From assembly GCA_016182495.1 (NCBI GenBank), contig JACPGK010000020.1, forward strand, positions 1-62,218: a stretch of DNA of 62,218 bases, in the 5' to 3' direction. Positions within the stretch are counted from its first letter, which is position 1. Every line of letters begins with the position of its first letter. Positions 8,926 to 27,933 of the stretch are shown piece by piece. The position numbers and the translations under genes are program-made. Origin of the DNA: Candidatus Kerfeldbacteria bacterium. Its GTDB lineage: Bacteria > Patescibacteriota > Patescibacteriia > UBA9570. Under the pieces are notes generated by a model that saw only the letters and a program-made list of their open reading frames with translations, was not told the DNA's origin and did not search any database.

Positions 8926-10330
8926 TTTACGTCGGCAACTTGATAGTAAAACCATTTCAGCCGTGGAATTGACCGAGCAGTTTTTACGTACCATTGCCGA
9001 GAAAAATCCCCAACTCAATGCTTATGTCTCCGTACTAAACGACTATGCTATCGAACAGGCCAAGCGTTGCGATGATGATATTGCCCAAGGCCAAATTCAA
9101 CCGCTCACTGGTATTCCGTATGCTTTGAAAGATATATTTTGCGTTAAGGGTATTGAAACTACGGCGTGTTCGAATATATTACGTGGTTATATTCCACCAT
9201 ATAGTGCCACTGTCGCCGAACGATTACGCGCCGGTGTACTGTTAGGCAAAACCAATACCGATGAATTTACCATGGGTAGTTCTACAGAAACATCAGCCTT
9301 TGGCGTAACGCATAATCCGTACGATGCTGATCGCGTATCGGGTGGTTCATCGGGTGGTTCGGCTGCGGCGGTAGCCGCTGGGTTAGCCACGTTTGGTTTA
9401 GGCACCGATACGGGCGGATCAATTCGACAGCCAGCCGCTTTTTGTGGCGTAGTGGGTTTGCGTCCAACTTACGGGCGAGTATCACGCTATGGCGCCATTG
9501 CCATGGCCTCATCGCTGGATACGGTAGGGCCAATCACCGCTACGGTGGAAGATTGCGCCATTGTGCTAGAGCAGATTGCTGGTTTCGATGCCCTTGACGG
9601 CACTACCAGTGATCGACCAGTAGAACAGTATCAAGCCATATTACGCAATGTACCCACTGGCCTGCGAATTGGTTTACCAACCGAATATTTTGAAACGGAA
9701 GGTTTGCACCCCGGTATTCGACAAGCCATTGAACAGATTGTGCAGCAATTAAAGCAAGCTGGCCACACTGTGCAAGCGGTATCAATTCCGCATACCAAAT
9801 ACGCTGTACCAACTTATTATATTATTTGTCCGTGTGAGGTAAGTTCAAATCTAGCTCGTTATGATGGTATTAAATATGGTTTTCGAGCCGATTCAGCTGA
9901 AGAATTATTAGAAATTTATCAACAATCACGCGCTCAAGGTTTTGGTGTAGAGGCCAAACGTCGCATCATGATTGGTACGTATGCATTATCGGCTGGTTAT
10001 TACGATGCGTATTATCTCAAAGCCATGCAGGTACGCACTTTATTGCGACAAGATTTTGCCGCAGCCTTTAATGAAGTTGATGTGATGATTGCTCCGGTAA
10101 CACCCCAGCCAGCCTTTAAAATTGGAGAAAAAACAACCGACCCCATCCAAATGTTCTTAGAAGATGTGTTTACTATTCCTAGTAATTTGGCTGGTTTGCC
10201 AGCGATCACTGTGCCTTGCGGAAAAATTGATCAGCTCCCCATTGCCTTGCAAGTGATTGGTCCACAGTGGTCAGAAGGTCGATTATTGCAATTAGGCTAT
10301 CAAATTGAACACTTGCCACATGACTCATAA
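8915..10330 (+). CDS. gatA: Asp/Glu-tRNA amidotransferase subunit A
   Basis: Amidase signature GGSSGGSAAAV, DTGGSIRQP, SNLARYDG. Confidence 0.98.
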   Translation: MLVDLRRQLDSKTISAVELTEQFLRTIAEKNPQLNAYVSVLNDYAIEQAKRCDDDIAQGQIQPLTGIPYALKDIFCVKGIETTACSNILRGYIPPYSATVAERLRAGVLLGKTNTDEFTMGSSTETSAFGVTHNPYDADRVSGGSSGGSAAAVAAGLATFGLGTDTGGSIRQPAAFCGVVGLRPTYGRVSRYGAIAMASSLDTVGPITATVEDCAIVLEQIAGFDALDGTTSDRPVEQYQAILRNVPTGLRIGLPTEYFETEGLHPGIRQAIEQIVQQLKQAGHTVQAVSIPHTKYAVPTYYIICPCEVSSNLARYDGIKYGFRADSAEELLEIYQQSRAQGFGVEAKRRIMIGTYALSAGYYDAYYLKAMQVRTLLRQDFAAAFNEVDVMIAPVTPQPAFKIGEKTTDPIQMFLEDVFTIPSNLAGLPAITVPCGKIDQLPIALQVIGPQWSEGRLLQLGYQIEHLPHDS

Positions 10331-10341
10331 TTTGCTATACT
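10313..10341 (+). promoter_or_regulatory. Sigma70 promoter for the response regulator and ndk
   Basis: TTGCCA 10313-10318, 17 bp, TG-c-TATACT 10336-10341. Confidence 0.7.
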
Positions 10342-10377
10342 AATATCAATAGTTATTTTAATAAGTGATTTAAAATT

Positions 10378-10746
10378 ATGCCAAAAGTATTATTGGTTGA
10401 AGACGACGAGATGCTGCACGGCATGTATATTCATAAGTTTAAGAATCAAGGATACGAGGTAATTTCAGCGTATAATGGCGCTGAAGGGATAGAAAAATCT
10501 ATTACCGAAAAGCCGGATATTATTTTACTCGATGTGATTATGCCTAAAATGGATGGCTTTGTGGCTTTAAAAAAGATGCGTAAAAATAGTGATACCGCCA
10601 AAACACCCATCATCATGTTAACGAATTTAGGCCAAGATGAAGATATTCGTAAGGGTAAAGAACTCGGCGCTGATGATTATTTCATTAAAGCGAACCATAC
10701 CCCACAAGAAGTGGTTGATAAGGTAAAAACATTGCTCAATGGTTGA
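10378..10746 (+). CDS. Stand-alone response regulator receiver protein
   Basis: LLVEDD, LLDVIMP, MLTN, FIKA. Confidence 0.95.
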   Translation: MPKVLLVEDDEMLHGMYIHKFKNQGYEVISAYNGAEGIEKSITEKPDIILLDVIMPKMDGFVALKKMRKNSDTAKTPIIMLTNLGQDEDIRKGKELGADDYFIKANHTPQEVVDKVKTLLNG

Positions 10747-11203
10747 ACGCTCGCTGATTATTGTTAAGCCCGATGCTTTGCAGCGTAATTTATTGGGTGA
10801 GATCATTCATCGTTTTGAACGTAAAGGCCTTAAAATTGTTGGCCTAAAAATGGTGGCGATTGATGATATCAAAATTGTCGAACACTATTCGCATCATGCC
10901 GACAAACCTTTTTTTGCTGATTTAAAACGATTTATGCAGTCGTCGCCGGTGGTGATGTTTGTACTGGAAGGCTTTGAAGCGATTGACGCTATTCGTTTAA
11001 TTGTTGGTCCAACCAAAGGCCGGGCAGCTGATGCCGGCAGTATTCGGGGAGATTTTGCCATGAGCGTGCAGTATAATATTATTCACGCTTCCGATTCGGC
11101 TGAATCAGCTAAAGCTGAAATTGCTCGATTTTTTAGCAACAACGAATTATTTGCCTATAACAAAATTGACGTCGATTATATTTACGGCGCCGACGAACGG
11201 TAA
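10739..11203 (+). CDS. ndk: Nucleoside diphosphate kinase
   Basis: IVKPDA, GSIRGDF, NIIHASD. Confidence 0.97.
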   Translation: MVERSLIIVKPDALQRNLLGEIIHRFERKGLKIVGLKMVAIDDIKIVEHYSHHADKPFFADLKRFMQSSPVVMFVLEGFEAIDAIRLIVGPTKGRAADAGSIRGDFAMSVQYNIIHASDSAESAKAEIARFFSNNELFAYNKIDVDYIYGADER

Positions 11204-11216
11204 AAACGCCAGGCAA

Positions 11217-11245
11217 TTGACAATATCTTAAAGTCATTATATGAT
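11217..11245 (+). promoter_or_regulatory. Sigma70 promoter of the vapBC-like operon
   Basis: TTGACA 11217-11222, 17 bp, TATGAT 11240-11245. Confidence 0.8.
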
Positions 11246-11253
11246 GTATGTGT

Positions 11254-11514
11254 ATGATACATACATCACAAAGAACTCAAGTTTTACTACCGGTTGATCT
11301 TCGTAAGAAGATTGATCGCATGTGCAGTATAACTTCAGAGAGTTTGGGAGAGTTTTTGCGTAAGGCGGCACAGGAAAGGCTGGAAAGAGAGTTGCAAAAA
11401 AAGGCTTCTCTTACTAAACTCGCAGAAGAAGTGATTGGATCTCTGCACCAAGGTTCTTGGAAAGATATGGATGTAGTAGCTTGGCAGCGAGACATGCGAG
11501 CAGATCGAAATTAA
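11254..11514 (+). CDS. Ribbon-helix-helix antitoxin (VapB-like)
   Basis: RTQVLL beta strand followed by helices; directly upstream of a PIN gene; ATG 11254 fits the promoter better than 11248. Confidence 0.75.
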   Translation: MIHTSQRTQVLLPVDLRKKIDRMCSITSESLGEFLRKAAQERLERELQKKASLTKLAEEVIGSLHQGSWKDMDVVAWQRDMRADRN

Positions 11515-11515
11515 T

Positions 11516-11887
11516 ATGTTTTTAATTGACACTAATGTTTTGATCCTTGGCTTGGCAGGGAAAATGCCAGATGCCAAGTTTTTGCAACACGTCATAGAAG
11601 ATGAAACGTTCTGTCTCTCGGTTATTACAGTGGCGGAGTTTTTTACCCGAGCTTCGGGAGACGAGGAGAAAATTCTTGAAAAATTATTTCATGTTTTCCT
11701 ACCACTGGCTATTGATGAAAATGTGGCTAAACAAGCCGGTTGGTATAGAAAAAAATATTTTAAAAAAAGCCAAGCAAAACTGCCTGATTATTTTTTAGCT
11801 GCCCAAGCAAAAGTGTATCGTTGCACACTCGTGACTCATAATACTCGTGATTTTCCTATGAAAGATATTGAAATTGTTTCACCATAA
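11516..11887 (+). CDS. vapC: PIN-domain toxin
   Basis: IDTNVLI, SVITVAE, PDYFLAA, VTHNTRDF. Confidence 0.92.
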   Translation: MFLIDTNVLILGLAGKMPDAKFLQHVIEDETFCLSVITVAEFFTRASGDEEKILEKLFHVFLPLAIDENVAKQAGWYRKKYFKKSQAKLPDYFLAAQAKVYRCTLVTHNTRDFPMKDIEIVSP

Positions 11888-11910
11888 AATTTTTATAGTT
11901 CATCAAAAAT

Positions 11911-11939
11911 TTGACAAAAAAAATACTCTGCTTTATACT
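11911..11939 (+). promoter_or_regulatory. Near-consensus sigma70 promoter of the aromatic amino acid operon
   Basis: TTGACA 11911-11916, 17 bp, TATACT 11934-11939. Confidence 0.9.
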
Positions 11940-11950
11940 TCGGTAACACT

Positions 11951-12034
11951 ATGAATAATTCGCACTCATTTAACTGGTACTGGTTTTATAAGCCGCTCCG
12001 ACAGGTGCTAGGGTTATTATTGTCCACACGCTAA
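11951..12034 (+). CDS. Attenuator leader peptide MNNSHSFNWYWFYKPLRQVLGLLLSTR (Phe/Trp/Tyr control codons)
   Basis: Hand translation; 6 of 7 consecutive codons (11969-11989) are aromatic (2F, 2W, 2Y); lies between the promoter and a terminator, upstream of DAHP synthase. Confidence 0.9.
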   Translation: MNNSHSFNWYWFYKPLRQVLGLLLSTR

Positions 12035-12096
12035 ATCGCATTCATTCCAGTGCAATTACCCAGACCTTTCGGAGCTTTTCCGGAAGGTCTGTTTGT
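11995..12096 (+). terminator. Attenuator: antiterminator and intrinsic terminator
   Basis: Terminator CAGACCTTTCGGA-gcttt-TCCGGAAGGTCTG 12061-12091 plus TTTGT; antiterminator GCTCCGA 11995-12001 pairs with TCGGAGC 12069-12075, extended by AGGT/ACCT and GGGT/ACCC. Confidence 0.85.
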
Positions 12097-12124
12097 ATAG
12101 GCCTGGTATATTAATCACAATTTT

Positions 12125-13141
12125 ATGATCATCGTTATGCAAGAAAACTCACCTAAACAAGATGCCCTCAACGTGGTTGAACATGTACGGCAACTCGGCC
12201 TGCAGCCGGTGTTGTTAGAAGGTACCGAGCGCAATGTTATTGCCGTGATTGGTGATGAGCGCATTTTGGATGTGCCAGTGTTGAACGCCATGACCAGCGT
12301 AGAAAAAGTCATGCCAGTGCTAGCCCCGTTTAAACTAGCCTCGCGCGAACATGCCAAAACCAAAACGGTTATCACCGTTGCCCCTAACGTTAGCATCGGT
12401 GGAACTCGCCTGGCCATTATGGCCGGCAACTGTGCCGTGGAAACCTTGGATGTTTCCTTACGTACCGCTCAAGCTGTACAGCACGCTGGCGCTACCATTC
12501 AACGCGGTGGCGCTTTTAAACCACGCACCTCACCCTATTCATTTCAAGGTTTGGGTGAAGAAGGCCTATTTATTTTACGCGAGGTGAAAAAACAAACTGG
12601 CTTACCGATTATTACCGAAGTGCTCGACCCACGCCAAATTGAATTGGTCGCTGAACACGCTGATATTTTGCAAGTGGGCACACGCAATATGCAGAATTTT
12701 GAATTATTACGTGAGCTGGGTAATTGTGGTAAACCGGTGCTATTAAAACGTGGCATGGCTGCTACCCTTGATGAATTTTTAATGTCAGCTGAATATATTC
12801 TATCGAGTGGTAATCCTAATTTAATTCTGTGTGAGCGCGGTATTCGCACCTATGAAACCGCCACGCGCAATACTCTTGATATTTCTGCCATTCCCGTACT
12901 CAAAGTTAAAACGCACTTACCGGTAATTGTCGATCCATCCCATGCGGCCGGTAAGCGTGCCTATGTGGCTGCGCTCGCTAAAGCCGCCATTGCCGCCGGG
13001 GCGGATGGTTTATTGTTAGATGTGCACCCCGATCCGGCGCGGTCGTTAGTTGATGCCGATCAAGCCTTAAGTTTTGAACAGTTTGATGATTTAATGACAG
13101 ATATCACCTTAATTGCCCAAGCAGTTGATCGAACCATTTAG
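12125..13141 (+). CDS. aroF: DAHP synthase type I-beta with N-terminal regulatory domain
   Basis: [30 protein letters not shown]. Confidence 0.95.
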
Positions 13142-13142
13142 T

Positions 13143-14414
13143 ATGTTTTACCGTAAGTTTGTTCAATCGATTGATTATCAACCGGCCAGCACTGCTTTCC
13201 GCGCCTATAGCGAGGCGGTACCTGGCATTTTGTTTGAATCGGTTGATGTGGCGCCGATTTACGGTCGGAAGAATGTATGGTTTGTTGATCCAATTGTTGC
13301 CATTACCGAACAAGCTGGTGCTGTACAGTTCGAATCATTGCATCCGGCTGGCGATATTGTGCGTCAACAACTCACCCAATCCATTCCCACTTTGCGCAGT
13401 ATCTTTGAACAAATTCACACACCTGATCCATACTTTGGCCTGTATGGTCTGTTCAGTTATGATTACGTTCGTCGATTTGAAACTTTACCGGATTTGCATG
13501 CTCGCGGCACCGTGCCAGATTTTCAGTTGTATATTCCGGATGTTATTTTTGTGTATGATCATTTAAAAGAAACGGCCGAAGTGCATTACTATCAACTCAC
13601 CCAGCTCACCTTAGCGGAACGACTGCAACAATTACCTGAGCAAGCCCAGCAATATATGAAAATTGGGGACGTGTTCGAATTAGTACTATCGCGCCGGTTA
13701 ACTGGATCGTTTGCTGGTTCGGCCCTTGGTTTATACGATGCCTATCGCAACGTTAACCCTTCGCCGTATATGTTTTTTATTAGAACACCGCAGCGAACTA
13801 TAGTAGGAGCCTCACCCGAAATGTTTGTGCGAGTTGAAGATGGTGAAGTGATGACGCGTCCAATCTCTGGCACCGCTGCCCGCAGTATGGATCCCATTGC
13901 CGATTATGAACACATGCTTACCTTATTGAATAGTCCAAAAGAAAAAAGTGAACTTGATATGCTTATTGATTTAGCTCGTAATGATGTTGCTCGAGTATGT
14001 CAACCGGGCATTACAGTATCCGATTATCGTTACGTAGAAAAATATTCAAAAGTAATGCACACCATTGCCCAAGTAACTGGTCGGTTAGATACTAGCCAGT
14101 ATTTGGCCTTCGATGCACTGGTGGCCTGTTTGAATGCTGGCACCTTAACGGGTGCTCCTAAAATTAGAGCAATGGAACTGATTGAGCAGCTTGAACCAGA
14201 GCGGCGGGGTTGTTATGGTGGTTGCGTTGGGTATATCACGTTTAATAATGAATTGAATACTGGCATTACCATTCGGTCGGCCGTGATTGAAGATGCTACC
14301 ATCACTATTCAAGCTGGTGCTACTGTGTTGTATGATTCTAATCCAACCGCCGAGTTTACAGAAACCGAACATAAAGCGGCGGCTTTACTGCAGGCTGCCA
14401 CTGCTACCCTATGA
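13143..14414 (+). CDS. trpE: Anthranilate synthase component I (compact)
   Basis: LFES, NPSPYM, GASPE, PISGT, DLARND, GAPKIRAM; start moved to ATG 13143. Confidence 0.92.
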   Translation: MFYRKFVQSIDYQPASTAFRAYSEAVPGILFESVDVAPIYGRKNVWFVDPIVAITEQAGAVQFESLHPAGDIVRQQLTQSIPTLRSIFEQIHTPDPYFGLYGLFSYDYVRRFETLPDLHARGTVPDFQLYIPDVIFVYDHLKETAEVHYYQLTQLTLAERLQQLPEQAQQYMKIGDVFELVLSRRLTGSFAGSALGLYDAYRNVNPSPYMFFIRTPQRTIVGASPEMFVRVEDGEVMTRPISGTAARSMDPIADYEHMLTLLNSPKEKSELDMLIDLARNDVARVCQPGITVSDYRYVEKYSKVMHTIAQVTGRLDTSQYLAFDALVACLNAGTLTGAPKIRAMELIEQLEPERRGCYGGCVGYITFNNELNTGITIRSAVIEDATITIQAGATVLYDSNPTAEFTETEHKAAALLQAATATL

Positions 14415-14998
14415 AACATGTTGTGATGATTGATAATTTTGATTCTTTCACTTTTAATTTGGTGGATTATTTTAAGCAAGGCGGTGTTCGTATTACTGTG
14501 CAACGCAATACTGCTGCAGTGAGCACGATTAAGCAACTCAAGCCCAACATGATAGTGTATTCTCCTGGGCCGGGTAACCCCAAGCAAGCTGGCAATTTGT
14601 TAAAATATATTGAATTTTTTAGCCAGCAGCTGGTGGTGCCACAATTTGGAGTGTGTTTAGGCTTACAGGCTATGATTGAGGCATTTGGTGGCAGTTTACG
14701 AGTACTGCCGCACCCCATCCACGGTAAAGCCTCATACATTCATCATCAGGGTGAGGGTATATTTCAATCGTTACCCAACCCGTTATTGGCCGGACGTTAC
14801 CATTCCTTAGCGGCTGAACATGTGCCGGCTGATTTTGACGTTACCGCCACGACCCAAGATGATCGTAATGGCGAAGTGGTCATGGCTATTCAACATCGAC
14901 ACCTGCCACTGGTTGGAGTGCAGTTTCATCCTGAATCAGTCTTAACTATGCACCATCAGGCCGGCCTGCATTTAATTCGTAATGTCATTGCTCAATGA
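14411..14998 (+). CDS. trpG: Anthranilate synthase component II
   Basis: IDNFDSFT, SPGPG, GVCLG, QFHPES. Confidence 0.95.
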   Translation: MKHVVMIDNFDSFTFNLVDYFKQGGVRITVQRNTAAVSTIKQLKPNMIVYSPGPGNPKQAGNLLKYIEFFSQQLVVPQFGVCLGLQAMIEAFGGSLRVLPHPIHGKASYIHHQGEGIFQSLPNPLLAGRYHSLAAEHVPADFDVTATTQDDRNGEVVMAIQHRHLPLVGVQFHPESVLTMHHQAGLHLIRNVIAQ

Positions 14999-15010
14999 TG
15001 AACAATTTGT

Positions 15011-15997
15011 ATGAATAACATTATACAACAATTGCAACGTGGTGAAGATTTAACCATTGCTCAAGCCGAGCAGGTGATGGATCAATTAATGGCTGGTCAA
15101 ATTGAGGCCGTACCCATGGCTGCCATTTTAATGGGCCTAGCCACCAAAGGTGAAACCACCGATGAATTGGTCGGCATGTTACACAGTGTGCATAAACATA
15201 TGATCGCCCTAGATTTAGGCCAACCATTATTAGATACCTGTGGCACTGGTGGGGATCATGCCAACACCATTAATCTATCTACCATGGCAGCCTTGGTATG
15301 TGCGGCTCTGGGCGTATCAGTAGCGAAGCACGGCAATCGAGCGGTTAGTTCTCAATCGGGCAGCGCCGATGTACTGGCTGCTTTAGGTGTACCAATTGAT
15401 TTAACTGGCCAAGCTGCCCAGCAGTATTTTAAACAGCATCACTTTGTGTTTTTGTTTGCGCCGTTATATCACCCAGCTTTTAAACAGCTGGCTAGCGTTC
15501 GTAAACAATTGGGTATTCGTACCATTATGAACCTGCTTGGACCATTAGCTAATCCAGCTCGGGCCAGTCACCGCTTGTTAGGAGTAGCTGATTTGGGGCT
15601 AGCTGATATGCTGGGTCAAACCTTAATGGAATTGGGCGTTCAGCATGCCGTGGTAGTGCATAGTGCCGATAATTTAGATGAAGTAAGCATTGCTGCTCCT
15701 ACTACGGTATTTGATTTTACGCAACAGGGTAGCAATCGTTTTCGCATTGAACCCGATACGCCATTCAGGGTAGATGATATGGCCGGTGGCACGGCTAAAC
15801 ACAATGCCGCCGTCATTCGACAGTTAGCCGAAGGTAAAGCTAGCCGAGCAGTTATTACCGCGGTGGCAATGAACGCTGGGTTAGCCTTATATGCGGCCGA
15901 TCAGGCCACTAGTTACGAGGCAGGTAAAACCATGGCTGAACAGTGCTTACGCTCGCATACCTTTGGAGCGTATCTACAAAAACTGACACCACAATGA
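15011..15997 (+). CDS. trpD: Anthranilate phosphoribosyltransferase
   Basis: DTCGTGGD, KHGNR, GPLANP. Confidence 0.97.
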   Translation: MNNIIQQLQRGEDLTIAQAEQVMDQLMAGQIEAVPMAAILMGLATKGETTDELVGMLHSVHKHMIALDLGQPLLDTCGTGGDHANTINLSTMAALVCAALGVSVAKHGNRAVSSQSGSADVLAALGVPIDLTGQAAQQYFKQHHFVFLFAPLYHPAFKQLASVRKQLGIRTIMNLLGPLANPARASHRLLGVADLGLADMLGQTLMELGVQHAVVVHSADNLDEVSIAAPTTVFDFTQQGSNRFRIEPDTPFRVDDMAGGTAKHNAAVIRQLAEGKASRAVITAVAMNAGLALYAADQATSYEAGKTMAEQCLRSHTFGAYLQKLTPQ

Positions 15998-16728
15998 CCA
16001 TCCTTGATACTATTTACCAGTATAAACAGCACGAGCTGGACCAACAATTACAACCGCAGCGCGATTTTGCCGCAGCCTTACGCAGTGCTACCGGCCTAGC
16101 CGTGATTGCCGAATTTAAACAGGCCTCGCCCAGTGCCGGCATGATTCGTACCGGAGCAGTGCTGGCCAATATTGTCACCCAATATTATCAAGGTGGAGCC
16201 CGAGCCTTATCAATTTTAACTGACCAACATTTTTTTCAAGGCCAATTAGATTATATTAATCAAGCCAAACAAGCCGTACCGTTACCGGTGTTGCGCAAAG
16301 ATTTTATTTTTCATCCTTTTCAAGTATACGAAAGTAAATTGGCCGGCGCCGACGCTATTTTATTAATCGCTGCCAAGTTGACAGGGCCACAATTACAACA
16401 GCTGGTAGCGTTAGCCCATAGCCTGGGTTTACAAACCTTGGTTGAAATTCATACCACCACTGAAGTTGATCGAGCCATCGCCTGCCAACCAACCATGTTT
16501 GGAGTAAATGCCCGTAATTTACACACCATGATCATTGATTTGCATACCATCGCCCGGATTGTGCCATTACTGCCGAGCAGTAGTTTGATTGTGTTCGAAT
16601 CAGGTATTACCAGCCGAGCCGATGTAGCGTATGTTCGGCAAGCTGGTGTCAAGGCTATTTTGATTGGCACAACGTTAATGCAGGCCGAGCATCCACAATT
16701 GGCTTTAGAGCAATTGATTGAAGCATAA
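15994..16728 (+). CDS. trpC: Indole-3-glycerol phosphate synthase
   Basis: IAEFKQASPSAG, LRKDF, ESGI; start at the ATGA overlap 15994. Confidence 0.96.
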   Translation: MTILDTIYQYKQHELDQQLQPQRDFAAALRSATGLAVIAEFKQASPSAGMIRTGAVLANIVTQYYQGGARALSILTDQHFFQGQLDYINQAKQAVPLPVLRKDFIFHPFQVYESKLAGADAILLIAAKLTGPQLQQLVALAHSLGLQTLVEIHTTTEVDRAIACQPTMFGVNARNLHTMIIDLHTIARIVPLLPSSSLIVFESGITSRADVAYVRQAGVKAILIGTTLMQAEHPQLALEQLIEA

Positions 16729-16732
16729 TGCT

Positions 16733-17371
16733 ATGTTGTTATATCCTCTAAAAATTTGTGGAATTACTAACGAAGCCGATGCTTTTTCGGCCGCTCAAGC
16801 TGGTGCCAGTTACTTGGGCTATATTTTAAATGCTCCAACCAGTCCACGCTATATTAGGGTTAATACGGCGGCTGCTATTATTAAGCGGGTGCGTCAAATT
16901 TATCCAGCAGTGAAACACGTTGGAGTATTTGTTGATGCTTCTTCGGCTGTGATGGATCAGGTTATCAGTCAATTACAGCTTGATGTTGTACAATTACACG
17001 GCCAGGAATCATTACAAGATATTGAACAACTGATTGCGCCAGTCATTTGGAAAACTGTTATTGTATCTACTCCGGACGATCTTCAGCAGCTTCATCTTTT
17101 TCAGCGTTCTTTAGCACGTTCAGCTTGCTCGGCGATTTTGTTAGATAGCGGCCAAGGGTCTGGCCAAACTATTGCCTCGACATTATTGGATCAGGTGACT
17201 GATTTTTCTACTATTATTTTAGCCGGCGGCATTACGCCTGATAATGTGACTGAACTGATCCAGCGTTATCATCCAGCTATTATCGATGTGAATAGTGGGG
17301 TAGAAGCTGTTCCTGGCAAAAAGGATATTTTTAAAATAAAACAATTAATCCAACGATTAAATCGTTTATGA
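16733..17371 (+). CDS. trpF: Phosphoribosylanthranilate isomerase
   Basis: KICGIT, VQLHG, LAGGI, DVNSGVE. Confidence 0.95.
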   Translation: MLLYPLKICGITNEADAFSAAQAGASYLGYILNAPTSPRYIRVNTAAAIIKRVRQIYPAVKHVGVFVDASSAVMDQVISQLQLDVVQLHGQESLQDIEQLIAPVIWKTVIVSTPDDLQQLHLFQRSLARSACSAILLDSGQGSGQTIASTLLDQVTDFSTIILAGGITPDNVTELIQRYHPAIIDVNSGVEAVPGKKDIFKIKQLIQRLNRL

Positions 17372-18597
17372 AGAGCAGTATGAAAAAACTTTTTTTTAAA
17401 ACTCAATATGAGCCAGATGAGCACGGTCATTTTGGTGAATTTGGTGGCCAGTATGTACCAGAATTATTAATTCCAGCTCTAGAAGAATTAACTCAAGCCT
17501 ATGAACAGGCCAAGGCTGATCCAAGTTTTGTGGCGACTGTTCATGAGGTGTTTAAAAACTATGTTGGCCGACCATCACCGTTGTATTTTGCTGAACGCTT
17601 AACCAAGCAGTTAGGTGGCGCCAAAATTTTTTTAAAGAATGAAGGGCTCAATCATACCGGTGCGCATAAAATTAATCACTGCGTTGGGCAAGCCTTATTA
17701 GCCCAGCGGTTGGGTAAAACTCGTTTGATTGCCGAAACGGGGGCTGGTCAACATGGTGTCGCCACGGCCACGGTGGCCGCCAAGTTTGGTTTGCACTGTA
17801 CCGTGCATATGGGAGCAGTTGATGTACAGCGACAAGCGCCCAATGTATTTTGGATGCAACAGTTAGGCGCCGAAGTACGAGTGGTGCACGACGGTAGCCA
17901 AACTTTAAAAGATGCTGTCACCAGTGCCTTACAAGATTGGATGACCGACCCGATTGGTAGTTACTATTTACTTGGTTCAGCCCTGGGACCACATCCGTAT
18001 CCGGTAATGGTGCGGGATTTTCAAAGTATTATCGGTATCGAAGTGGCTGAACAATTTCAAGCCTATGAAGGCCAGGGATCCGTACCAGATTATTTGGTGG
18101 CGTGTGTTGGTGGTGGCAGCAATGCCATTGGTTTATTCAACGCTTTTTTGGATGATAAACAGGTGAAATTAATTGGCGTAGAAGCTGGTGGCCGTAACCC
18201 AAACCAAGTTGGCGAACATGCCACTCGGCTAGGGCGGCAACCCCAGGTAGGTGTGATTGAAGGCTATAAATCATTTTTTTTGCAAGATGACGATGGTAAT
18301 TTGCAACCAACCCACAGTGTGTCAGCTGGGTTAGATTATCCCGGCATTGGGCCAGAGCATGCCTATTTATATCAACAAGGTCGAGCCCAGTATGTAGCCG
18401 TGACTGATGTTCAAGCTGTGCAAGCCTTTCGGGCATTGGCCAACACCGAAGGTATTGTACCGGCTTTGGAATCGGCTCATGCGGTGGCCTATGCTATACA
18501 GTTAGCCCCCACCTTGCCACCGAAAAAAACCATCGTGGTGAATATTTCCGGGCGAGGGGATAAGGATTATTTTATTTTGCGGGAATTGATTCATTAA
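17368..18597 (+). CDS. trpB: Tryptophan synthase beta chain
   Basis: HTGAHKIN, ETGAGQHG, SAGLDYPG, SGRGDKD. Confidence 0.98.
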   Translation: MKSSMKKLFFKTQYEPDEHGHFGEFGGQYVPELLIPALEELTQAYEQAKADPSFVATVHEVFKNYVGRPSPLYFAERLTKQLGGAKIFLKNEGLNHTGAHKINHCVGQALLAQRLGKTRLIAETGAGQHGVATATVAAKFGLHCTVHMGAVDVQRQAPNVFWMQQLGAEVRVVHDGSQTLKDAVTSALQDWMTDPIGSYYLLGSALGPHPYPVMVRDFQSIIGIEVAEQFQAYEGQGSVPDYLVACVGGGSNAIGLFNAFLDDKQVKLIGVEAGGRNPNQVGEHATRLGRQPQVGVIEGYKSFFLQDDDGNLQPTHSVSAGLDYPGIGPEHAYLYQQGRAQYVAVTDVQAVQAFRALANTEGIVPALESAHAVAYAIQLAPTLPPKKTIVVNISGRGDKDYFILRELIH

Positions 18598-18600
18598 ATT

Positions 18601-19374
18601 ATGTCCCGCACCATTTCCGAACAACTTACCATCATCAAACAACAGCACCGCCTTGGTGTAATGACGCACGTGGTGATGGGCTACCCATCGCTGCATGAAA
18701 CCAAACAACGCGTACTAGCGATGGCGGCGGCTGGCGTTGATAGTATTGAATTACAAATTCCATTCTCGGATCCGTTAGCCGATGGCCCAGCCATTACTAA
18801 GGCTAATCAGCAAGCTTTAGCCGCCGGTGTTACTGTACAGCAGTGTTTACAGCTGGCTGAACAACTCACCAGAGCAGTTGATATCCCTTTACAATGTATT
18901 GGGTACTATAATACGATCCATCATTTTGGCGTACAACAATTTGTGCAGGCTAGCCAAGCAGCTGGTATTCAAGGATTCACCATTCCTGATATGCCACTCA
19001 CTGAAGAGCCCTATGAACATTTTTATGCTTTGGCCGCCCAAGCTAACCTGCCAGTAATTCAACTGATTTCACCAGCTACTCCTATTGAACGTTTACGCTT
19101 GATCAATCAGCACGCCCAGGCCATGGTGTACTGTGTCAGTCGCTTTGGTGTCACCGGCGCTCACACCACCTTACCAGATCATCTCATCACCTACCTACGC
19201 ACGGTTCGGCAATATGTTACACTACCATTAGCGGTTGGCTTTGGTATTTCAACGCCCAAACATATTCGCGCTCTGCATGGGCTAGCCGATGTGGCCGTGA
19301 TTGGCAGTGCGTTATTGAATGTGTCACTCGAAAATTTAACACAACAATTAACTAACTTATGCGCCGAACGGTAA
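18601..19374 (+). CDS. trpA: Tryptophan synthase alpha chain
   Basis: PFSDPLADGP, GVTG, VGFGIS. Confidence 0.97.
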   Translation: MSRTISEQLTIIKQQHRLGVMTHVVMGYPSLHETKQRVLAMAAAGVDSIELQIPFSDPLADGPAITKANQQALAAGVTVQQCLQLAEQLTRAVDIPLQCIGYYNTIHHFGVQQFVQASQAAGIQGFTIPDMPLTEEPYEHFYALAAQANLPVIQLISPATPIERLRLINQHAQAMVYCVSRFGVTGAHTTLPDHLITYLRTVRQYVTLPLAVGFGISTPKHIRALHGLADVAVIGSALLNVSLENLTQQLTNLCAER

Positions 19375-20375
19375 CAACCAACCAGCAAAGTTATCCAGTA
19401 ATTATTCAAACCGGCAGCAGCGAACGGTTCAATTTTTCCACACCAGCGGTGGTCGTGTGTGATCGTCAGGTGCAACGGTCGTATCCTAAACTATTGCCGC
19501 AATATCGCCGTGTTATATTGCCAGATGGCGAGGCCAACAAACGTTTACGTACCATTGAGTGGTTGTGCTTGCGGCTACTCAAATTAGGCTGTGATCGTTC
19601 AACTAGTCTGATCGGTATTGGTGGCGGGGTGGTAGGTGATATGGTTGGTTTTACTGCCGCTGTGTTTATGCGCGGGGTGCCGTATTATCACGTACCAACG
19701 ACCTTGTTAGCCATGGTTGATTCTAGTATTGGCGGCAAAACAGGTGTTGACCTTAGCCTTGGTAAAAATTTGATTGGTACTACCTATCAACCAATGGCCG
19801 TAATTAGTGACCCACGGTTTTTATTAACCTTATCGGCTGAACAATTTAGTAATGGCCTAGCCGAGGTGATTAAGCATGCTGTGCTGGAACCAAGCCTGCT
19901 TAGCTGGATCGAACAACACCGTAGTCAAATTCAGCGGCGACACCTGCCAACCTTACAACAGCTGATTAGTCGTAATGTTGAAATTAAAGCCGCTATTGTG
20001 GCGGCCGATGAGCACGAAACTTTACAACGGATGCTATTGAATTTGGGCCATACCTTTGGTCATGCCTTCGAAAAATTAAGTCGCTATACCATACCGCATG
20101 GCCAAGCGGTGGCGATTGGTTTAATGTATGCCATGAGCTACACTGCTATGCCGCAGCATCAGCGGGTGGCCAAATTATTACAGCAGTTCGATTTGCCAAT
20201 TCGTTTGCCCCGGCCGTATTCTCCCCGGGCCATTGTACAGGCGATGCACCATGATAAAAAACATCGCGGTAACTATATTACTCTGGTTGTGCCATTACAG
20301 CTTGGTCATGTGCGCATTGATCAAACGGTCACACCAGCTCACTTGCTACGCTTTTTGCAGCACTACCATGGCTAA
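19359..20375 (+). CDS. aroB: 3-dehydroquinate synthase
   Basis: GGGVVGD, PTTLLAMVDSSIGGKT, LNLGHTFGHAFE, HG. Confidence 0.96.
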   Translation: MRRTVTTNQQSYPVIIQTGSSERFNFSTPAVVVCDRQVQRSYPKLLPQYRRVILPDGEANKRLRTIEWLCLRLLKLGCDRSTSLIGIGGGVVGDMVGFTAAVFMRGVPYYHVPTTLLAMVDSSIGGKTGVDLSLGKNLIGTTYQPMAVISDPRFLLTLSAEQFSNGLAEVIKHAVLEPSLLSWIEQHRSQIQRRHLPTLQQLISRNVEIKAAIVAADEHETLQRMLLNLGHTFGHAFEKLSRYTIPHGQAVAIGLMYAMSYTAMPQHQRVAKLLQQFDLPIRLPRPYSPRAIVQAMHHDKKHRGNYITLVVPLQLGHVRIDQTVTPAHLLRFLQHYHG

Positions 20376-21951
20376 GCCAATTAAATACACTGTTACGGTA
20401 CCTGGTTCAAAATCATTTATGAATCGGGCTTTAATTTGTGCCGCCCTAGCCAAGGGTCAATCAACGTTATTGAATCCCGTGTATTGTGATGATACCAATT
20501 ACATGATTAAAGCCTTGCGGGCTTTAGGCGTGCACATTAATACCACGGCTCGGCAGGTGACAATTCGCGGCCTGAACGGAAAATTCAAACTACCCAAACC
20601 GGGGCGTGGTACACGGCGAATTTATATAGGCAATGCCGGCACGGTGATACGTTTTTTAACACCACTGCTGCCAGCCGGTACAAGGTTGGTTGGTAATCAG
20701 CGTATGCAGCAACGCCCGTTGCAGGAATTAATTGAGGCAGTGGCACAGATCAAACACGACAATCACATAACTATTACTGGTACAGTCAGCAGTCAATTTA
20801 TTTCGGCGCTTTTATTAGTTGCACCCACACTGCCACACGGCTTAACGATTATGGTGAAAGGTAAATTGGTATCAGCTCCGTATGTTCAAATGACTTTAGC
20901 CGTGATGCATCAATTTGGCATTAAAGTTACAAGGCGCAATGATCAATTTACAATTTATAAACAAGACTACCAAGCAAACAACTATACCATTGAAGGCGAT
21001 GCCAGCAGCGCCACCTACTGGTGGGCACTGGCCGCCATCACCGGTAGTCATATCACTGTGCCGAATATTCCATTGGATACTCTACAACCTGACGCAAAAT
21101 TTAAACAGTTATTAGAAAAAATGGGTTGCACAGTGAAGGCTAATACGGTGATTGGTCCATGGAATAAAGCACTCAAACCGATGACAGTGAATATGTCCGA
21201 TTATCCTGATGCGGTTTTAGCTGCGGCCGTAGTGATGACACAAGCCAGCGGTAGAAGCACCATTACCGGGATTGGTCATTTAACTCATAAAGAAACTGAT
21301 CGATTGACATTGTTAAAAAAAAATTTACGGAAATTAAAATCAACACACCCAATTGTCATTGATACTGGTGCTGATCATCGGTTCGCGATGGCGTTCAGTA
21401 TTTTAGGTTTAGCTATTGGTAAGATCACTGTGGATAATAAACAGTGCGTCAAAAAAAGTTATCCAACATTTTGGTCTGATTTTAAAAAGGTTGAACAACA
21501 AGTCAAACGTCAAACCATCGTGCTCACCGGCCTGCGCGGCGTGGGTAAAACCACCTATGGTAAAATATTAGCCAAGCAATTCAAGATGAAATTTGTTGAT
21601 ACGGATACGATGATGGGTAAAAATATTTCCACATTGGTTCAGCAACACGGTTGGAAACAGTTTCGCAATCAGGAACATGTTGTGGTCAAACAAATGTGTA
21701 AGAAAAAAAATGCGATTATCGCAACGGGCGGTGGCACATTAATGTATCCACGTAATTTCACAGTATTAAAAGAGCACTATATTATCTTATTAACGGCACC
21801 ACTGGCTGTGATAAGACAGCGCTTATCAAAACAATCACATCGTCCAGCTTTGCTGAAACGTCAGACTGTTGTGACTGAATTAAATCAGGTTTGGCAACAA
21901 CGCAAAAATAAATACTATCAAATAGCCGACAATATCTATGATAGCCGTTAG
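20368..21951 (+). CDS. aroA: Fused EPSP synthase (shortened) and shikimate kinase (AroA-AroK)
   Basis: GSKS..NR, GNAGT, SSQFISA, KETDRL, DHRFAM, KSYP, then P-loop GLRGVGKT and ATGGG; start moved to ATG 20368. Confidence 0.9.
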   Translation: MAKPIKYTVTVPGSKSFMNRALICAALAKGQSTLLNPVYCDDTNYMIKALRALGVHINTTARQVTIRGLNGKFKLPKPGRGTRRIYIGNAGTVIRFLTPLLPAGTRLVGNQRMQQRPLQELIEAVAQIKHDNHITITGTVSSQFISALLLVAPTLPHGLTIMVKGKLVSAPYVQMTLAVMHQFGIKVTRRNDQFTIYKQDYQANNYTIEGDASSATYWWALAAITGSHITVPNIPLDTLQPDAKFKQLLEKMGCTVKANTVIGPWNKALKPMTVNMSDYPDAVLAAAVVMTQASGRSTITGIGHLTHKETDRLTLLKKNLRKLKSTHPIVIDTGADHRFAMAFSILGLAIGKITVDNKQCVKKSYPTFWSDFKKVEQQVKRQTIVLTGLRGVGKTTYGKILAKQFKMKFVDTDTMMGKNISTLVQQHGWKQFRNQEHVVVKQMCKKKNAIIATGGGTLMYPRNFTVLKEHYIILLTAPLAVIRQRLSKQSHRPALLKRQTVVTELNQVWQQRKNKYYQIADNIYDSR

Positions 21952-23137
21952 TCTAACGCGCCCCCAAGATTATCAACAAGCCTTACGTAGTGGGGCAGAT
22001 TATGTAGAGTTGCGTACGGATTATTTTACCGATCAACAACTCAAACACTTTGTGGAACATAGCACGTTGCCCGTGATCTACACCATCAAACGTCCCACAG
22101 CTTATTTACCCAAGGTTGCCTATGTAGACATAGATGATCAATCCAAACAACATCTTTCAGGAAAAGTTATTCGGTCTTTTCATGATTATAAACGCACTCC
22201 CCATTTTTCAACATTAAATCAGCTGGTGCAGAGCATCTTAAAACAAAAATCAATTCCAAAAATTGCTACGCACGTTCAGACAGTAGCTGATCTTTATACG
22301 TTAGCCAGACTGCAAAAGAAATATGGTAAAAAGATTATTGTGGTTGGCATGGGCGAATTAGGCATGATGACCAGAGTGTATAACAAAAGTTTATTGACGT
22401 ATGCTAGCGTTTCTAGAGCTGCCACTACAGCCACCGGACAGTTAACGATGAAGGAAATGAAGACCACTCAACTATTTGGTTTAGTTGGTGATGCTATCCA
22501 ACATAGTTTAAGTCCAAAGCTGCATCAGCAGTTTTATCGGCAAAAGCATTTACCGTATGATTATCAATTATGGGAAACAGTTGATTTGGCAAAGATGATG
22601 TTTGTGTTTGATTTTTTTGAACTACCAGGTGCGTCGGTAACCAAGCCATTCAAACGTCAGGTGATGCAGTATTGTGATCAGATTGATCGGCATGCCAAAA
22701 AAATTGGGGCAGTCAATACGGTAGTGCGCCGGGGCAACACGTTGCTTGGTTATAATACCGATTGGCTTGGTGTACAAAACAGTATTGGTCGTTACCTAAC
22801 AGGTAAACGAGTGTTGATACTAGGTAGAGGTGGCACAGCCAAAGCCATAGCTTATGCCGCCAAACAAGCTGGATCAAAAAAAATAACCATGCTGGGTCAT
22901 CAACAATTACCAACTAGCACAACTGATTATGATGTTGTCGTGAATGCTACTCCAGTAGGTGATCAATTATTAGTGCCAGCCAATAGTTTAAAAGGTAAAG
23001 TGGTGATGGATTGTATTTATGGTCAGCAGACTGAATTATTGAAACAGGCCAGGTATAATGGTGCCAAGGTTGTGCTCGATGGCCTGCCTATGTTACGGTA
23101 TCAAGCAACAGAACAGTTTAGATTAATGAAAGTTTGA
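21938..23137 (+). CDS. aroE: Fused type I dehydroquinase and shikimate dehydrogenase (AroD-AroE)
   Basis: VELRTD, SFHDY, GMGELG, then HSLSP, VTKPFK, GAVNT, NTD, NATP. Confidence 0.9.
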   Translation: MIAVSLTRPQDYQQALRSGADYVELRTDYFTDQQLKHFVEHSTLPVIYTIKRPTAYLPKVAYVDIDDQSKQHLSGKVIRSFHDYKRTPHFSTLNQLVQSILKQKSIPKIATHVQTVADLYTLARLQKKYGKKIIVVGMGELGMMTRVYNKSLLTYASVSRAATTATGQLTMKEMKTTQLFGLVGDAIQHSLSPKLHQQFYRQKHLPYDYQLWETVDLAKMMFVFDFFELPGASVTKPFKRQVMQYCDQIDRHAKKIGAVNTVVRRGNTLLGYNTDWLGVQNSIGRYLTGKRVLILGRGGTAKAIAYAAKQAGSKKITMLGHQQLPTSTTDYDVVVNATPVGDQLLVPANSLKGKVVMDCIYGQQTELLKQARYNGAKVVLDGLPMLRYQATEQFRLMKV

Positions 23138-23140
23138 ATT

Positions 23141-24115
23141 ATGCCCGGTAATACCTTTGGAACAATTTTTCGCTTAACTACTTGGGGTGAATCTCATGGT
23201 GTTGCTATTGGCGGAGTAATAGATGGCTGCCCGGCTGACATTGCTTTATGTGCAGCTGATATTCAAAAAGATCTCGATCGCCGTAAGCCTGGTCAAAGCA
23301 GTATTACCAGTGCTCGCAAGGAACCTGATACAGTGCAAATTTTGTCTGGCGTGTTTCAGGGCAAAACTACCGGTACGCCAATTAGTCTGATTATGTACAA
23401 TCAAGATCAACGCTCCAAAGATTACGAAAAGCTAGTATACAAATATCGTCCTGGTCATGCTGATGAAGTATACGATTTGAAATATGGCTGGCGTGATTAT
23501 CGTGGCGGTGGGCGAGCCAGTGCCCGTGAAACGGCTATCCGTGTAGCCGCTGGCGCCATTGCCAAAAAAATCTTGCCCCGAAAAACCGCAGTGATTGCCT
23601 ACACCAAACAAATTCAAGATTTAGTTGTCACCACACCAAAATTGAATCAGATTGAACAAAACACCGTGCGTGCAGCTGATAACGTCATTGCCAAAAAAAT
23701 GGTGGCACTGATTAAAACGGCTATGCGCCAACAGGATTCGTTAGGCGGTGTGATTGAAATTGTAATCAAACATTGCCCGATAGGATTAGGCGAACCGGTA
23801 TTTGATAAATTGAAAGCCGATTTGGCCAAAGCTTTATTAAGTATCAATGCTGTAGTCGGATTTGAATATGGCGCTGGCTTTGGCGTGGCGCAGTTGTACG
23901 GTTCAGAACATAATAAAATTGAAGTGGGGATGTATGGCGGTATTTCGAATGGAAAAACGATAACTATGCGTGTGGCGGTGAAACCAACTTCATCCATAAA
24001 AATAGGCGGCCGGCACGATCCATGTTTATTGCCGCGGGCTGTGCCAATTTGTGAAGCCATGGTTAATGTGGTGTTAGCGGATCATTATTTACGGAATGCC
24101 ACTGCTACCGTATGA
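23141..24115 (+). CDS. aroC: Chorismate synthase
   Basis: [28 protein letters not shown]. Confidence 0.97.
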
Positions 24116-24669
24116 TCATAGCCGTAGCCGGTAATCAGGGCAGTTTTTCACATCAAGCTGGGCAATTGTATGCCACTGGCCAGCAATTGGCTGATGTTCA
24201 GTTTGTGTATGCTATTGATAGCGCTGGAGTGTTTGCCGCTGTACAAACTGGTGCGGCCGAATTAGGCATTATGCCCTTGTATAATCCCACGGGCGGAATA
24301 GTGCAAATGACACTGCAAGCTATGGGTGAACATCGTTTCAAAACTGTGGCTTCGTTCACTATGCCGGTGCAACACTGTTTGCTGTGCTTACCCAATGTGC
24401 GGCCCGATGAACTAAAAACTATTGTGTCGCACGAACAAGCCTTGGCCCAATGTCGGCAGTATGTCGATGTGAATTGGCCAGAGTGTCAGTTGCAACCCTA
24501 TAGCGATACTGCTCAAGCCGCTGCTGATTTAGCTGCTGGTAAATTTGCGCTGGAAACAGCTGTGTTGGCTCCAAAAATGTGCGTGGAATTATATGGTTTG
24601 CGCTTGATTGCCGAAGGGGTGCAAGATGATAAAAGTAATGGAACGGTGTTTATAGTGATTGGCTCATAA
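24112..24669 (+). CDS. pheA: Prephenate dehydratase, catalytic domain only (no ACT domain)
   Basis: [22 protein letters not shown]; ends just after the TRF-equivalent (here TVF). Confidence 0.8.
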
Positions 24670-24672
24670 TGT

Positions 24673-25629
24673 ATGAACATAGCAATAATAGGCGCTGGTC
24701 GTTTCGGCACAGTATTACAAAAACATTTATCAACGGATAATGATGTGGTGATGGTAGGAGTAGAGTATCATTCTGCCCTTACCTCGGAATTATCGGAATG
24801 CAACCTAATCATTTTTGCGGTACCCAATCGTGCCTTGGCTGAAGCGGTTCAACAATGGAAACCGTTGATATCTGATACAGCCATTATTATGGATGTTGGT
24901 TCAGTCAAACTGTTGCCCTGCCAAATTTTATTAGAAGCTTTTCCCGAGCATAATGTCATCGGTACGCATCCATTATTCGGACCCGACAGTGCAGCTGAAT
25001 CATGGGACGGTCAAAAAATGGTGTGGTGTAAATTACACTGTGCCGACGATATCTATAACAATGTCCAAACATTATTTACCAGCCGTGGTGTTACTACTAT
25101 TGAAACTACACCGGAACAGCACGATCACATGATGGCGCAAACTCAAGCTCTGGTTCATTTTATTGGCCGGGCACTAACCGGTTTACAACCTCAAACTATT
25201 GCCACACCCGATTACGCTAATTTACTGCGCATGATGGAAAAAGTGACCAATGATACCTGGGAGTTATTTTATGATATGCAAAATTTAAATCCGTATACCA
25301 AACCGGTGCGGCAAGAATTTATAAAAAATATTGAAAAGTTGGAACAGGAGATTAAGAAAGAAAGCCAGGGTGAAAAATCGATTAATGAAATCCGTTCCCA
25401 AATAGATACTATCGATGAACAGATTGTGGCCCTGGTGGGGGAGCGGTTCAAATTGGCGCAACAGATTGGGCAACGTAAAAAAGATATTCAAGCTGACGTT
25501 CAAGACCCAAAACGCGAAACTGAATTATATTTGCGCATGCACCAGTTATCGCAACAATACCAGGTGCCGTTAGAAGTGGTGACACATCTCTATGATTATT
25601 TAATGGATCAAGCTCGCCGGATGCAATAA
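24673..25629 (+). CDS. tyrA: Prephenate dehydrogenase fused to C-terminal AroQ chorismate mutase
   Basis: GAGRFG, DVGSVK, HPLFGP, HDHMMA; C-terminal IRSQIDTID...R...IG..K...DPKRE. Confidence 0.9.
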   Translation: MNIAIIGAGRFGTVLQKHLSTDNDVVMVGVEYHSALTSELSECNLIIFAVPNRALAEAVQQWKPLISDTAIIMDVGSVKLLPCQILLEAFPEHNVIGTHPLFGPDSAAESWDGQKMVWCKLHCADDIYNNVQTLFTSRGVTTIETTPEQHDHMMAQTQALVHFIGRALTGLQPQTIATPDYANLLRMMEKVTNDTWELFYDMQNLNPYTKPVRQEFIKNIEKLEQEIKKESQGEKSINEIRSQIDTIDEQIVALVGERFKLAQQIGQRKKDIQADVQDPKRETELYLRMHQLSQQYQVPLEVVTHLYDYLMDQARRMQ

Positions 25630-25635
25630 TTGCTC

Positions 25636-25664
25636 TTGACATGAAAATACTGTATTAGTACACT
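25636..25664 (+). promoter_or_regulatory. Sigma70 promoter
   Basis: TTGACA 25636-25641, 17 bp, TACACT 25659-25664. Confidence 0.85.
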
Positions 25665-25675
25665 ACTATTAACTT

Positions 25676-25843: not shown

Positions 25844-25880
25844 GAAGTTCAATCCGCCCTTTGTCAATTAGGAGGAAGTA

Positions 25881-27923: not shown

Positions 27924-27933
27924 CAACCGGGAA

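Follow-up and report, generated by a model that had tools for sequence, protein, structure and literature searches.

The 62,218-nucleotide contig JACPGK010000020.1 of a Candidatus Kerfeldbacteria bacterium, the whole of which we refer to as the window, carries a run of 14 aromatic-pathway open reading frames (ORFs) that is preceded by a short leader. The arrangement of this leader and its conservation in related genomes indicate that it is very probably a ribosome-mediated, leader-peptide transcription attenuator, which would gate the 14-ORF operon by the supply of charged aromatic tRNAs. The codon content of the leader peptide further suggests that the attenuator probably senses at least two aromatic amino acids, Trp among them. 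The elements concerned are the following.

11911 to 11939, forward strand: sigma-70-type promoter, with the −35 hexamer TTGACA at 11911–11916, a 17-nucleotide spacer and the −10 hexamer TATACT at 11934–11939.
11949 to 11967, forward strand: region 1, a candidate anti-antiterminator that can pair with 12003–12023, leaving the aromatic block in the loop.
11951 to 12034, forward strand: leader ORF of 27 codons plus stop, with an ATG at 11951 and the stop codon at 12032–12034, encoding MNNSHSFNWYWFYKPLRQVLGLLLSTR.
11969 to 11989, forward strand: control block F-N-W-Y-W-F-Y, codons 7–13 of the leader ORF, in which Phe, Trp and Tyr have two codons apiece.
11994 to 12019, forward strand: region 2, the antiterminator 5′ arm, comprising the core GCTCCGACAGGT (11995–12006) and an extension, within codons 15–23 of the leader ORF.
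12053 to 12076, forward strand: region 3, the antiterminator 3′ arm, which overlaps the entire 5′ arm of the terminator.
12061 to 12098, forward strand: intrinsic terminator, consisting of a hairpin (12061–12091) and the tract TTTGTAT (12092–12098).
12125 to 25629, forward strand: the regulated operon, 14 tightly packed ORFs of the aromatic pathway.

The promoter matches the consensus at 11 of 12 positions and is among the two best of the 47 promoter-like sites present between 9000 and 28000 (38.5 ± 5.7 in shuffled sequence). Its −10 hexamer ends 11 nucleotides before the leader ATG, and we infer that the transcript starts a few bases upstream of 11951 and is leaderless or nearly so. The same layout recurs in other leaders: in 23 of 27, a promoter with at least 9 of 12 consensus matches places its −10 hexamer 6–13 nucleotides upstream of the ATG, and no ribosome-binding site is evident. 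Six of the seven codons of the control block specify aromatic residues, and Phe, Tyr and Trp are the products of the operon. Blocks with at least six Phe, Trp or Tyr codons (F/W/Y) in seven are rare, numbering 62 in the 2,608,776 six-frame windows of the genome. The genome also contains 72 short ATG-initiated ORFs with at least five F/W/Y codons in seven, and only the leader at 11951 has a promoter with at least 10 of 12 matches within 40 nucleotides; scanning these 72 ORFs revealed no second aromatic leader. Chance does not explain the arrangement, because F/W/Y blocks are rare, the pairing with a promoter is unique in the genome and the arrangement recurs in relatives.

The terminator hairpin has 14 pairs (7 of them G–C) and a 3-nucleotide loop, and ranks first of the 24 terminator-like sites in a 19-kb scan (9000–28000). 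The leader as a whole folds with −45.4 kcal/mol (z = −2.35; 3 of 200 shuffled sequences were equally stable). The region 2 core (11995–12006) is the reverse complement of the terminator 5′ arm and loop (12064–12075), which makes the two helices mutually exclusive. An alignment-free duplex test, in which the best partner was sought for the 26 nucleotides ending at the terminator loop, with 300 shuffles per leader, picked out 11994–12019 as the best partner in the window, with a duplex energy of −27.4 kcal/mol (shuffle mean −12.1; none of the 300 as good). In all 14 leaders to which the test was applied, the best partner begins 2–10 nucleotides past the last codon of the aromatic block, with energies between −16.6 and −31.4 kcal/mol, whereas the shuffle means lie between −6.8 and −16.7; the native duplex beat every shuffle in 11 leaders and was matched or bettered by 1, 5 and 6 of 300 in the remaining three. 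The complementarity is kept even where the sequences of the arms are wholly different (L013, L045 and L025). The consensus structure calculated by RNAalifold from 10 sequences is the antiterminator. In an alignment of 12 sequences, 86.9% of antiterminator cells are paired, compared with 31–53% when the register is slid, and six pairs show two-sided changes; the terminator is paired in 86.7% of cells, with four pairs showing two-sided changes. Neither score was reached in any of 500 shuffles, a control that ignores the relatedness of the sequences.

These results bear out most of an earlier sequence-only reading of this DNA, which had proposed an attenuator with Phe, Trp and Tyr control codons. 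The near-consensus promoter and the near-leaderless 27-codon ORF with its F-N-W-Y-W-F-Y block are present as described, and the antiterminator 5′ arm, placed by that reading at 11995–12014, indeed lies inside the leader ORF just past the control codons, with slightly wider limits. The terminator stem occupies the same coordinates as claimed, with 14 pairs counted rather than 13, and the 14 aromatic-pathway ORFs follow the leader directly. The reading had also named conserved W/Y/F clusters and covarying stems in relatives as the pattern to look for; both are found, and together with the complementarity in 14 of 14 leaders they uphold the proposal of a ribosome-mediated attenuator with these control codons.

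The DAHP synthase that heads the operon was found in 17 of 61 related genomes, including 11 of the 12 genomes of the window's own family. Among 11 relatives' loci in which the N-terminus of DAHP synthase is present, nine hold a complete ORF of 21–30 codons with an F/W/Y block, and a further one is truncated at the end of its contig but retains region 2 and the terminator. Additional leaders came from three metagenome contigs, from a genome of another family (L013, MQNVRFSRNYFWFYFTPCYRLGDLS) and from a record titled Peribacteria (L045); the metagenome scan for DAHP synthase yielded only three close relatives, one of which has the same leader as L026. The blocks vary in order and not in composition (FNWYWFY, FNFYWFY, YFSWFWY, YFTWFWY, YFDFYWF, YYFWFSY, FSFYWFY, FWFYFSY, YYFFYF and FFWFF), a pattern that fits codon sensing better than a functional peptide. 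The peptide tails diverge freely, and the sole conserved residues after the block (L-R-K/R-V) are those encoded by the antiterminator RNA arm.

We propose the following mechanism. RNA polymerase would start a few bases upstream of the ATG and a ribosome would initiate on the leader. When Phe-, Tyr- or Trp-tRNA is scarce, the ribosome would stall within 11969–11989 and separate region 1 from region 2; the free region 2 would pair with region 3 once the latter has been transcribed, sequestering the whole 5′ arm of the terminator, so that RNA polymerase would read into the 14 ORFs. When translation is unimpeded, the passing ribosome would cover region 2, or region 2 would re-pair with region 1 behind the ribosome; the hairpin at 12061–12091 would then form and transcription would end near 12092–12098. 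For geometry and equilibrium folding we assumed a ribosome footprint of −15 to +12 nucleotides. With this footprint, a ribosome on codons 7–11 covers approximately 11954–11993, that is, it sits inside the loop that separates region 1 from region 2 and would prevent their pairing. In the model, F7, W9, Y10 and W11 provide at least one codon per residue that is far enough upstream to leave region 2 clear, and a stall at Y13 covers part of region 2, with 8 of the 12 core bases paired as opposed to 11. Three-input OR logic, in which each amino acid would be sufficient alone, has its only indirect support in the association of leader Trp codons with trp genes described below. Stalling, termination in vivo, the OR logic and the path to the OFF state are inferred from the sequence.

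Several observations weigh against this picture. The U-tract TTTGTAT is short and weak. The region 1:2 pairing in the window is also weak (−11.3 kcal/mol, equalled by 25 of 300 shuffles), and its register, read by hand, shifts by 2 nucleotides between relatives; across the 14 leaders this pairing was equalled by at most 9 of 300 shuffles in six, by 19–25 of 300 in three, including the window, and was at chance level in five. The full-length equilibrium fold keeps the terminator whichever codon the ribosome occupies, and RNA cut before region 4 forms the antiterminator even without a ribosome or with a ribosome at the stop codon. Finally, one of the 11 close loci (L014, genome G004) has no leader ORF upstream of its partial DAHP synthase gene. 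We consider that equilibrium folding neither supports nor refutes a kinetic switch, and that the OFF state would require kinetics. One claim of the sequence-only reading does not fit this geometry, namely that translation up to the stop codon ending at 12034 melts the antiterminator: in the model, a ribosome at 12032 covers approximately 12017–12044 and leaves 11995–12006 free, and the antiterminator still forms. Since a ribosome parked at the stop leaves the core free, the OFF state in the window would need either ribosome transit over codons 15–23 or re-pairing of regions 1 and 2. Three other leaders (L026, L013 and L045) have their stop close enough for a parked ribosome to mask region 2 in the model, as in trpL, and in L099 the masking is partial.

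If the Trp codons are read as a regulatory input, their presence might be expected to follow the trp genes, and they do tend to go together in the genomes compared. In five genomes of the family (the window's, G002, G003 as far as its contig extends, G005 and G006) trpE to trpA lie between DAHP synthase and aroB, and the block of each contains one or two Trp codons. In the sister genome G007, DAHP synthase is followed directly by aroB and the leader, MRSQPNTYYFFYFTRYYRKLC, has no Trp codon; trpB was not found in this genome, which is 73% complete. The leader of G018 has Phe and Trp codons and no Tyr codon, its operon contains trpB and prephenate dehydratase, and a prephenate dehydrogenase domain was not found (genome 90% complete). 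Of 21 genomes, 14 have Trp in the leader and trpB was found in 10 of these, versus 1 of the 7 whose leader has no Trp; Fisher's test gives p = 0.024, a value that overstates the link, the genomes being related. Four genomes run counter to the association in having Trp in the leader with no trpB found (G055, G316, G173 and G076), and one, G079, in having trpB and a leader without Trp. Separately, the trpB match of G006 (contig C6, 34959–35985) is in two pieces, with TAG and TAA inside the second, and may reflect a broken gene or an assembly error.

The four genomes with leader Trp and no detected trpB would also suit an attenuator that has one input in practice, most likely Phe, or Phe and Tyr, with the Trp codons adding little and the OR gate being only apparent. 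The same explanation gains from the geometry of the last block codons, F12 and Y13, where a stalled ribosome would partly cover region 2, and from the Corynebacterium glutamicum leader aroR (Phe-Tyr-Phe), which, in the account given in PMC11802643, rose on Phe limitation and did not respond to Tyr availability despite its Tyr codon, a precedent that counts against the multi-input reading. Against it, a ribosome stalled at F7, W9, Y10 or W11 would leave region 2 uncovered, and the Trp codons follow the operon in the window's family: the five checked genomes with trp genes in the operon have one or two, and G007, which lacks the genes, has none. We consider a single effective input unlikely and retain the multi-input attenuator as the more probable reading.

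Two further explanations do without a sensing ribosome altogether. If the switch were set by a small-molecule riboswitch, a T-box-like tRNA sensor or an RNA-binding protein, the short ORF would be incidental; other genomes of the Candidate Phyla Radiation (CPR) do control Trp by T-box-like leaders (three genomes) or Trp_repressor-family genes (two genomes), as described below, and equilibrium folding alone leaves the OFF state unexplained. However, the ORF, its promoter-adjacent start and its aromatic block are retained across complete changes of the RNA arms, and RNAalifold on 10 sequences recovered no conserved structured domain between promoter and terminator besides the competing helices. 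Nor did Rfam yield a match at gathering thresholds in the 15 related loci; a permissive search of 11000–13000 returned six weak matches (E up to 10, best E = 0.2), all to unrelated families, and no family matches the window's leader. The Trp, Phe, Thr, His and Leu leader families and the riboswitches were dropped, as none was among these matches, and the T-box model (RF00230) found nothing at the leader, although it detects T-box-like leaders upstream of trpE in three CPR genomes. A non-ribosomal factor is very improbable. Marginally less probable still is that there is no regulation at all, with the hairpin being a leaky constitutive terminator or insulator behind the PIN-domain gene upstream and the ORF either untranslated or encoding a small hydrophobic peptide with a function of its own. 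That gene ends at 11887 and the hairpin could terminate it, and the U-tract is weak. Yet a near-consensus promoter lies between the gene and the hairpin, the antiterminator covaries and in all 14 leaders its complementarity well exceeds chance, the peptide tails are not conserved, and the genes on the upstream side vary from relative to relative, with the leader remaining next to DAHP synthase.

The ribosome-mediated attenuator proposed here has the general plan of the classical Escherichia coli systems. In trpL and pheL, a short leader ORF contains codons for the end product, antiterminator and terminator hairpins are mutually exclusive, and the position of the ribosome decides read-through in response to a single input (summarised in PMC11802643). 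The window's leader resembles them in its end-product codons and mutually exclusive hairpins. It differs in that their ORFs have a ribosome-binding site, whereas its start is leaderless or near-leaderless, and in having codons for three aromatic residues, control codons located in the loop between regions 1 and 2, a stop codon 26 nucleotides past the region 2 core, and no match to an Rfam leader family. Multivalent leaders are represented by E. coli thrL and the ilv leaders, in which Thr/Ile or Leu/Val/Ile codons allow several end products to feed one switch. The window's leader likewise holds codons for several amino acids, but here the residues are the three aromatic ones and the operon comprises the common pathway and all three branches. 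The aromatic supraoperon of Bacillus subtilis joins aro, trp and tyr genes in one large unit and also chooses between a leader terminator and antiterminator. There the choice is made by TRAP, a Trp-activated RNA-binding protein that senses Trp only, while in the window the switch would be the translating ribosome.

Closer in function is aroR, which lies ahead of aroF in C. glutamicum and has been described as a ribosome-mediated attenuator (PMC11802643, PMC4046766 and PMC7356990, citing Neshat et al. 2014). Like the window's leader it encodes a mixed-aromatic peptide directly upstream of a DAHP synthase gene, a likeness of function only. As these accounts present it, aroR has no Trp codon and controls the aroF operon, not the whole pathway, the trp operon of C. 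glutamicum having its own trpL. The motif uORFC-13-1, with 24 representatives located only upstream of aroF in Acholeplasma and environmental sequences, was proposed by its authors to act by attenuation (PMC8632094); it, too, combines a promoter, a start codon and an upstream ORF with Phe codons directly before an intrinsic terminator. By its description in that source it differs in having a ribosome-binding site and a U-run that encodes at least one Phe, with no Trp or Tyr codons stated. Leader peptides that lack a 5′ untranslated region and are followed by hairpins and a U-stretch are described for trpL1, leuL and ilvL of Streptomyces lividans (PMC8079986); unlike the window's leader, the leaderless examples from Actinobacteria in that account serve single pathways, belong to another phylum and include none that is multivalent for aromatic residues. 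The sequence-only reading knew of no described triple-aromatic attenuator and of no attenuation in the CPR. We, too, found neither a leader with all three aromatic residues nor attenuation in Patescibacteria or the CPR in the open full-text literature, subscription papers and supplements lying outside that search; multi-aromatic DAHP synthase leaders in general do have precedents in aroR and uORFC-13-1. What is new is that Trp joins Phe and Tyr in one leader, that a whole pathway including the trp genes would be regulated, that the start is apparently leaderless, and that the host is a member of the CPR, its leader being one of a family that databases lack.

The operon begins with a DAHP synthase carrying an N-terminal FXD domain, followed by trpE, trpG, trpD, trpC, trpF, trpB and trpA, and continues with aroB, an aroA-aroK fusion, an aroD-aroE fusion, aroC, prephenate dehydratase and a prephenate dehydrogenase-chorismate mutase fusion. 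The three fusions (EPSP synthase-shikimate kinase, dehydroquinase-shikimate dehydrogenase and prephenate dehydrogenase-chorismate mutase) all lie within 20233–25629. No aromatic aminotransferase is present among the 14 ORFs. One further feature marks the downstream boundary.

25820 to 25842, forward strand: hairpin resembling a terminator, followed by a T-run, where the operon probably ends.

On the upstream side, the neighbours are the PIN-domain gene and a small ORF. The latter, of 88 residues and without a Pfam match, overlaps the start of the PIN-domain gene (the two together spanning 11248–11887) and has its own promoter with 11 of 12 consensus matches at 11217–11245; this pair, directly 5′ of the attenuator, looks like a toxin-antitoxin pair. 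The host genome is 1.3 Mb in size and 96% complete. The most similar DAHP synthases (76–82% identity) are in records titled Candidatus Kerfeldbacteria or Patescibacteria group, and the NCBI taxonomy places Kerfeldbacteria within the Patescibacteria/Parcubacteria group; these titles and the size of the genome are the basis for assigning it to the CPR. Several records among L019–L024 whose DAHP synthase and leader are 79–82% like the window's are titled 'uncultured Gammaproteobacteria'; their nearest kin are Kerfeldbacteria/Patescibacteria and the titles are probably wrong. In L025 (genome G002), the approximately 150 nucleotides between the leader terminator and DAHP synthase contain a second short ORF, MNNSLTNKLSQNLMHYLVAQSTCYAYWFK, which starts with MNNS like the window's leader, ends in an aromatic cluster and is accompanied by an A/T-rich hairpin that lacks a T-run; this ORF may be the remnant of a tandem leader.

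The window's genome (G000) also contains a second leader-peptide attenuator, located on contig C21 at 101506–101565 of the forward strand (locus L221, 207–345). Here a near-leaderless ORF, MIDRSIQITTTTTTTTSGG, has eight Thr codons in a row and is followed by a strong terminator (fold z = −5.5); downstream lie a fused aspartokinase-homoserine dehydrogenase (thrA), asd, a 223-residue ORF without a Pfam match and threonine synthase (thrC). We count this Thr-codon attenuator of the same genome as support for reading the aromatic leader as an attenuator. On the minus strand of contig C7 (42344, counted on the reverse complement), another short ORF, MFLTVQYSTTTTITIRHTRLR, lies between a promoter-like site and a terminator and resembles a Thr/Ile leader; no biosynthetic gene follows, the next long ORF being one of 1512 residues. 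The genome-wide scan for leader ORFs with terminators is insensitive, its terminator pattern having missed the window's own TTTGTA tract.

Beyond the family, DAHP synthase was found in 23 of the 401 genomes of an even sample of the phylum. In 14 of the 22 other phylum-wide DAHP synthase loci, an F/W/Y-rich short ORF lies upstream; the eight without one are mostly matches that start inside the protein, where the gene start may be misplaced. Leaving out L192, whose only match is a TTG-initiated 40-codon ORF, gave 13 loci to follow, of which 11 have a terminator and two have none by the finder. Of those 11, five have an antiterminator equalled by at most 4 of 300 shuffles and four have no significant antiterminator. 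None of the followed operons holds trp genes within 16 kb.

Five of the sampled CPR genomes have a trp operon apart from DAHP synthase, and each of these trp operons comes with a Trp device of its own. In G079, G106 and G177, which belong to one family, T-box-like leaders lie ahead of trpEGDCFBA, all on the minus strand (L222, 7591–7848; L224, 7338–7590; L223, 10487–10753); their E values of 1e-14, 4.5e-12 and 3e-8 correspond to scores below the Rfam gathering cut-off, and UGG stands at the specifier as we read it. The other two (G224 and G408) have Trp_repressor-family genes immediately upstream of trpE (L225, 8353–8613, and L226, 8741–9034, both on the forward strand; Pfam E values 2e-23 and 5e-21). 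Four of the five DAHP synthase leaders in these genomes keep a Trp codon, consistent with a common-pathway gate that is responsive to all three products.

Look-alikes exist outside the CPR. F/Y-rich short ORFs, some also with Trp, that are followed by strong terminators lie upstream of DAHP synthase in L068, L073, L074, L081, L089, L113, L152, L161 and L173, in records titled Planctomycetota (MSTRPAYFAYFWFTRHTAATGSM), Lentisphaeria, Anaerostipes and Blautia, and on metagenome contigs, and Rfam matches none of them; the Lachnospiraceae examples share a conserved ...FCC... tail. The permissive filter with which these records and the metagenome contigs were screened (at least four F/W/Y codons in seven) surely admits chance ORFs, and only individually examined ones are cited. 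L085 (record title Sphingomonas sp.) has a Trp-only leader (…AGWWWRSS…), with a terminator, in front of a DAHP synthase gene and not of a trp operon.

Taken together, we see about an even chance that these leaders represent an undescribed and widespread family of leaderless multi-aromatic attenuators on DAHP synthase operons across the CPR, with a codon mix tuned to the branches that the operon or genome holds, and with the look-alikes in Planctomycetota, Lentisphaeria and Lachnospiraceae records. The same reading, held with the same evenly divided judgement, would have the trp genes moving into the operon in the window's family together with Trp codons in the block, both being absent from the sister genome G007.

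CPR bacteria are usually described as reduced symbionts without amino-acid biosynthesis. The window's genome has the whole aromatic pathway in one operon, and the regulator of this operon costs about 180 bases. The leaders are not in Rfam and are therefore missed by genome annotation. The element is also small enough for use as a sensor of aromatic amino acids in synthetic biology. If the switch works as proposed, transcription and translation would be coupled in this lineage, classical attenuation would extend to a three-product input, and natural variants, in which the leader has or lacks Trp codons and the operon has or lacks trp genes, would provide material for studying how codon content determines which inputs are sensed. 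If the wider reading of an undescribed family is true, a complete amino-acid pathway would be controlled by one three-input RNA switch, with no protein regulator, and regulatory coupling of translation to transcription would be evidenced for the first time in CPR bacteria.

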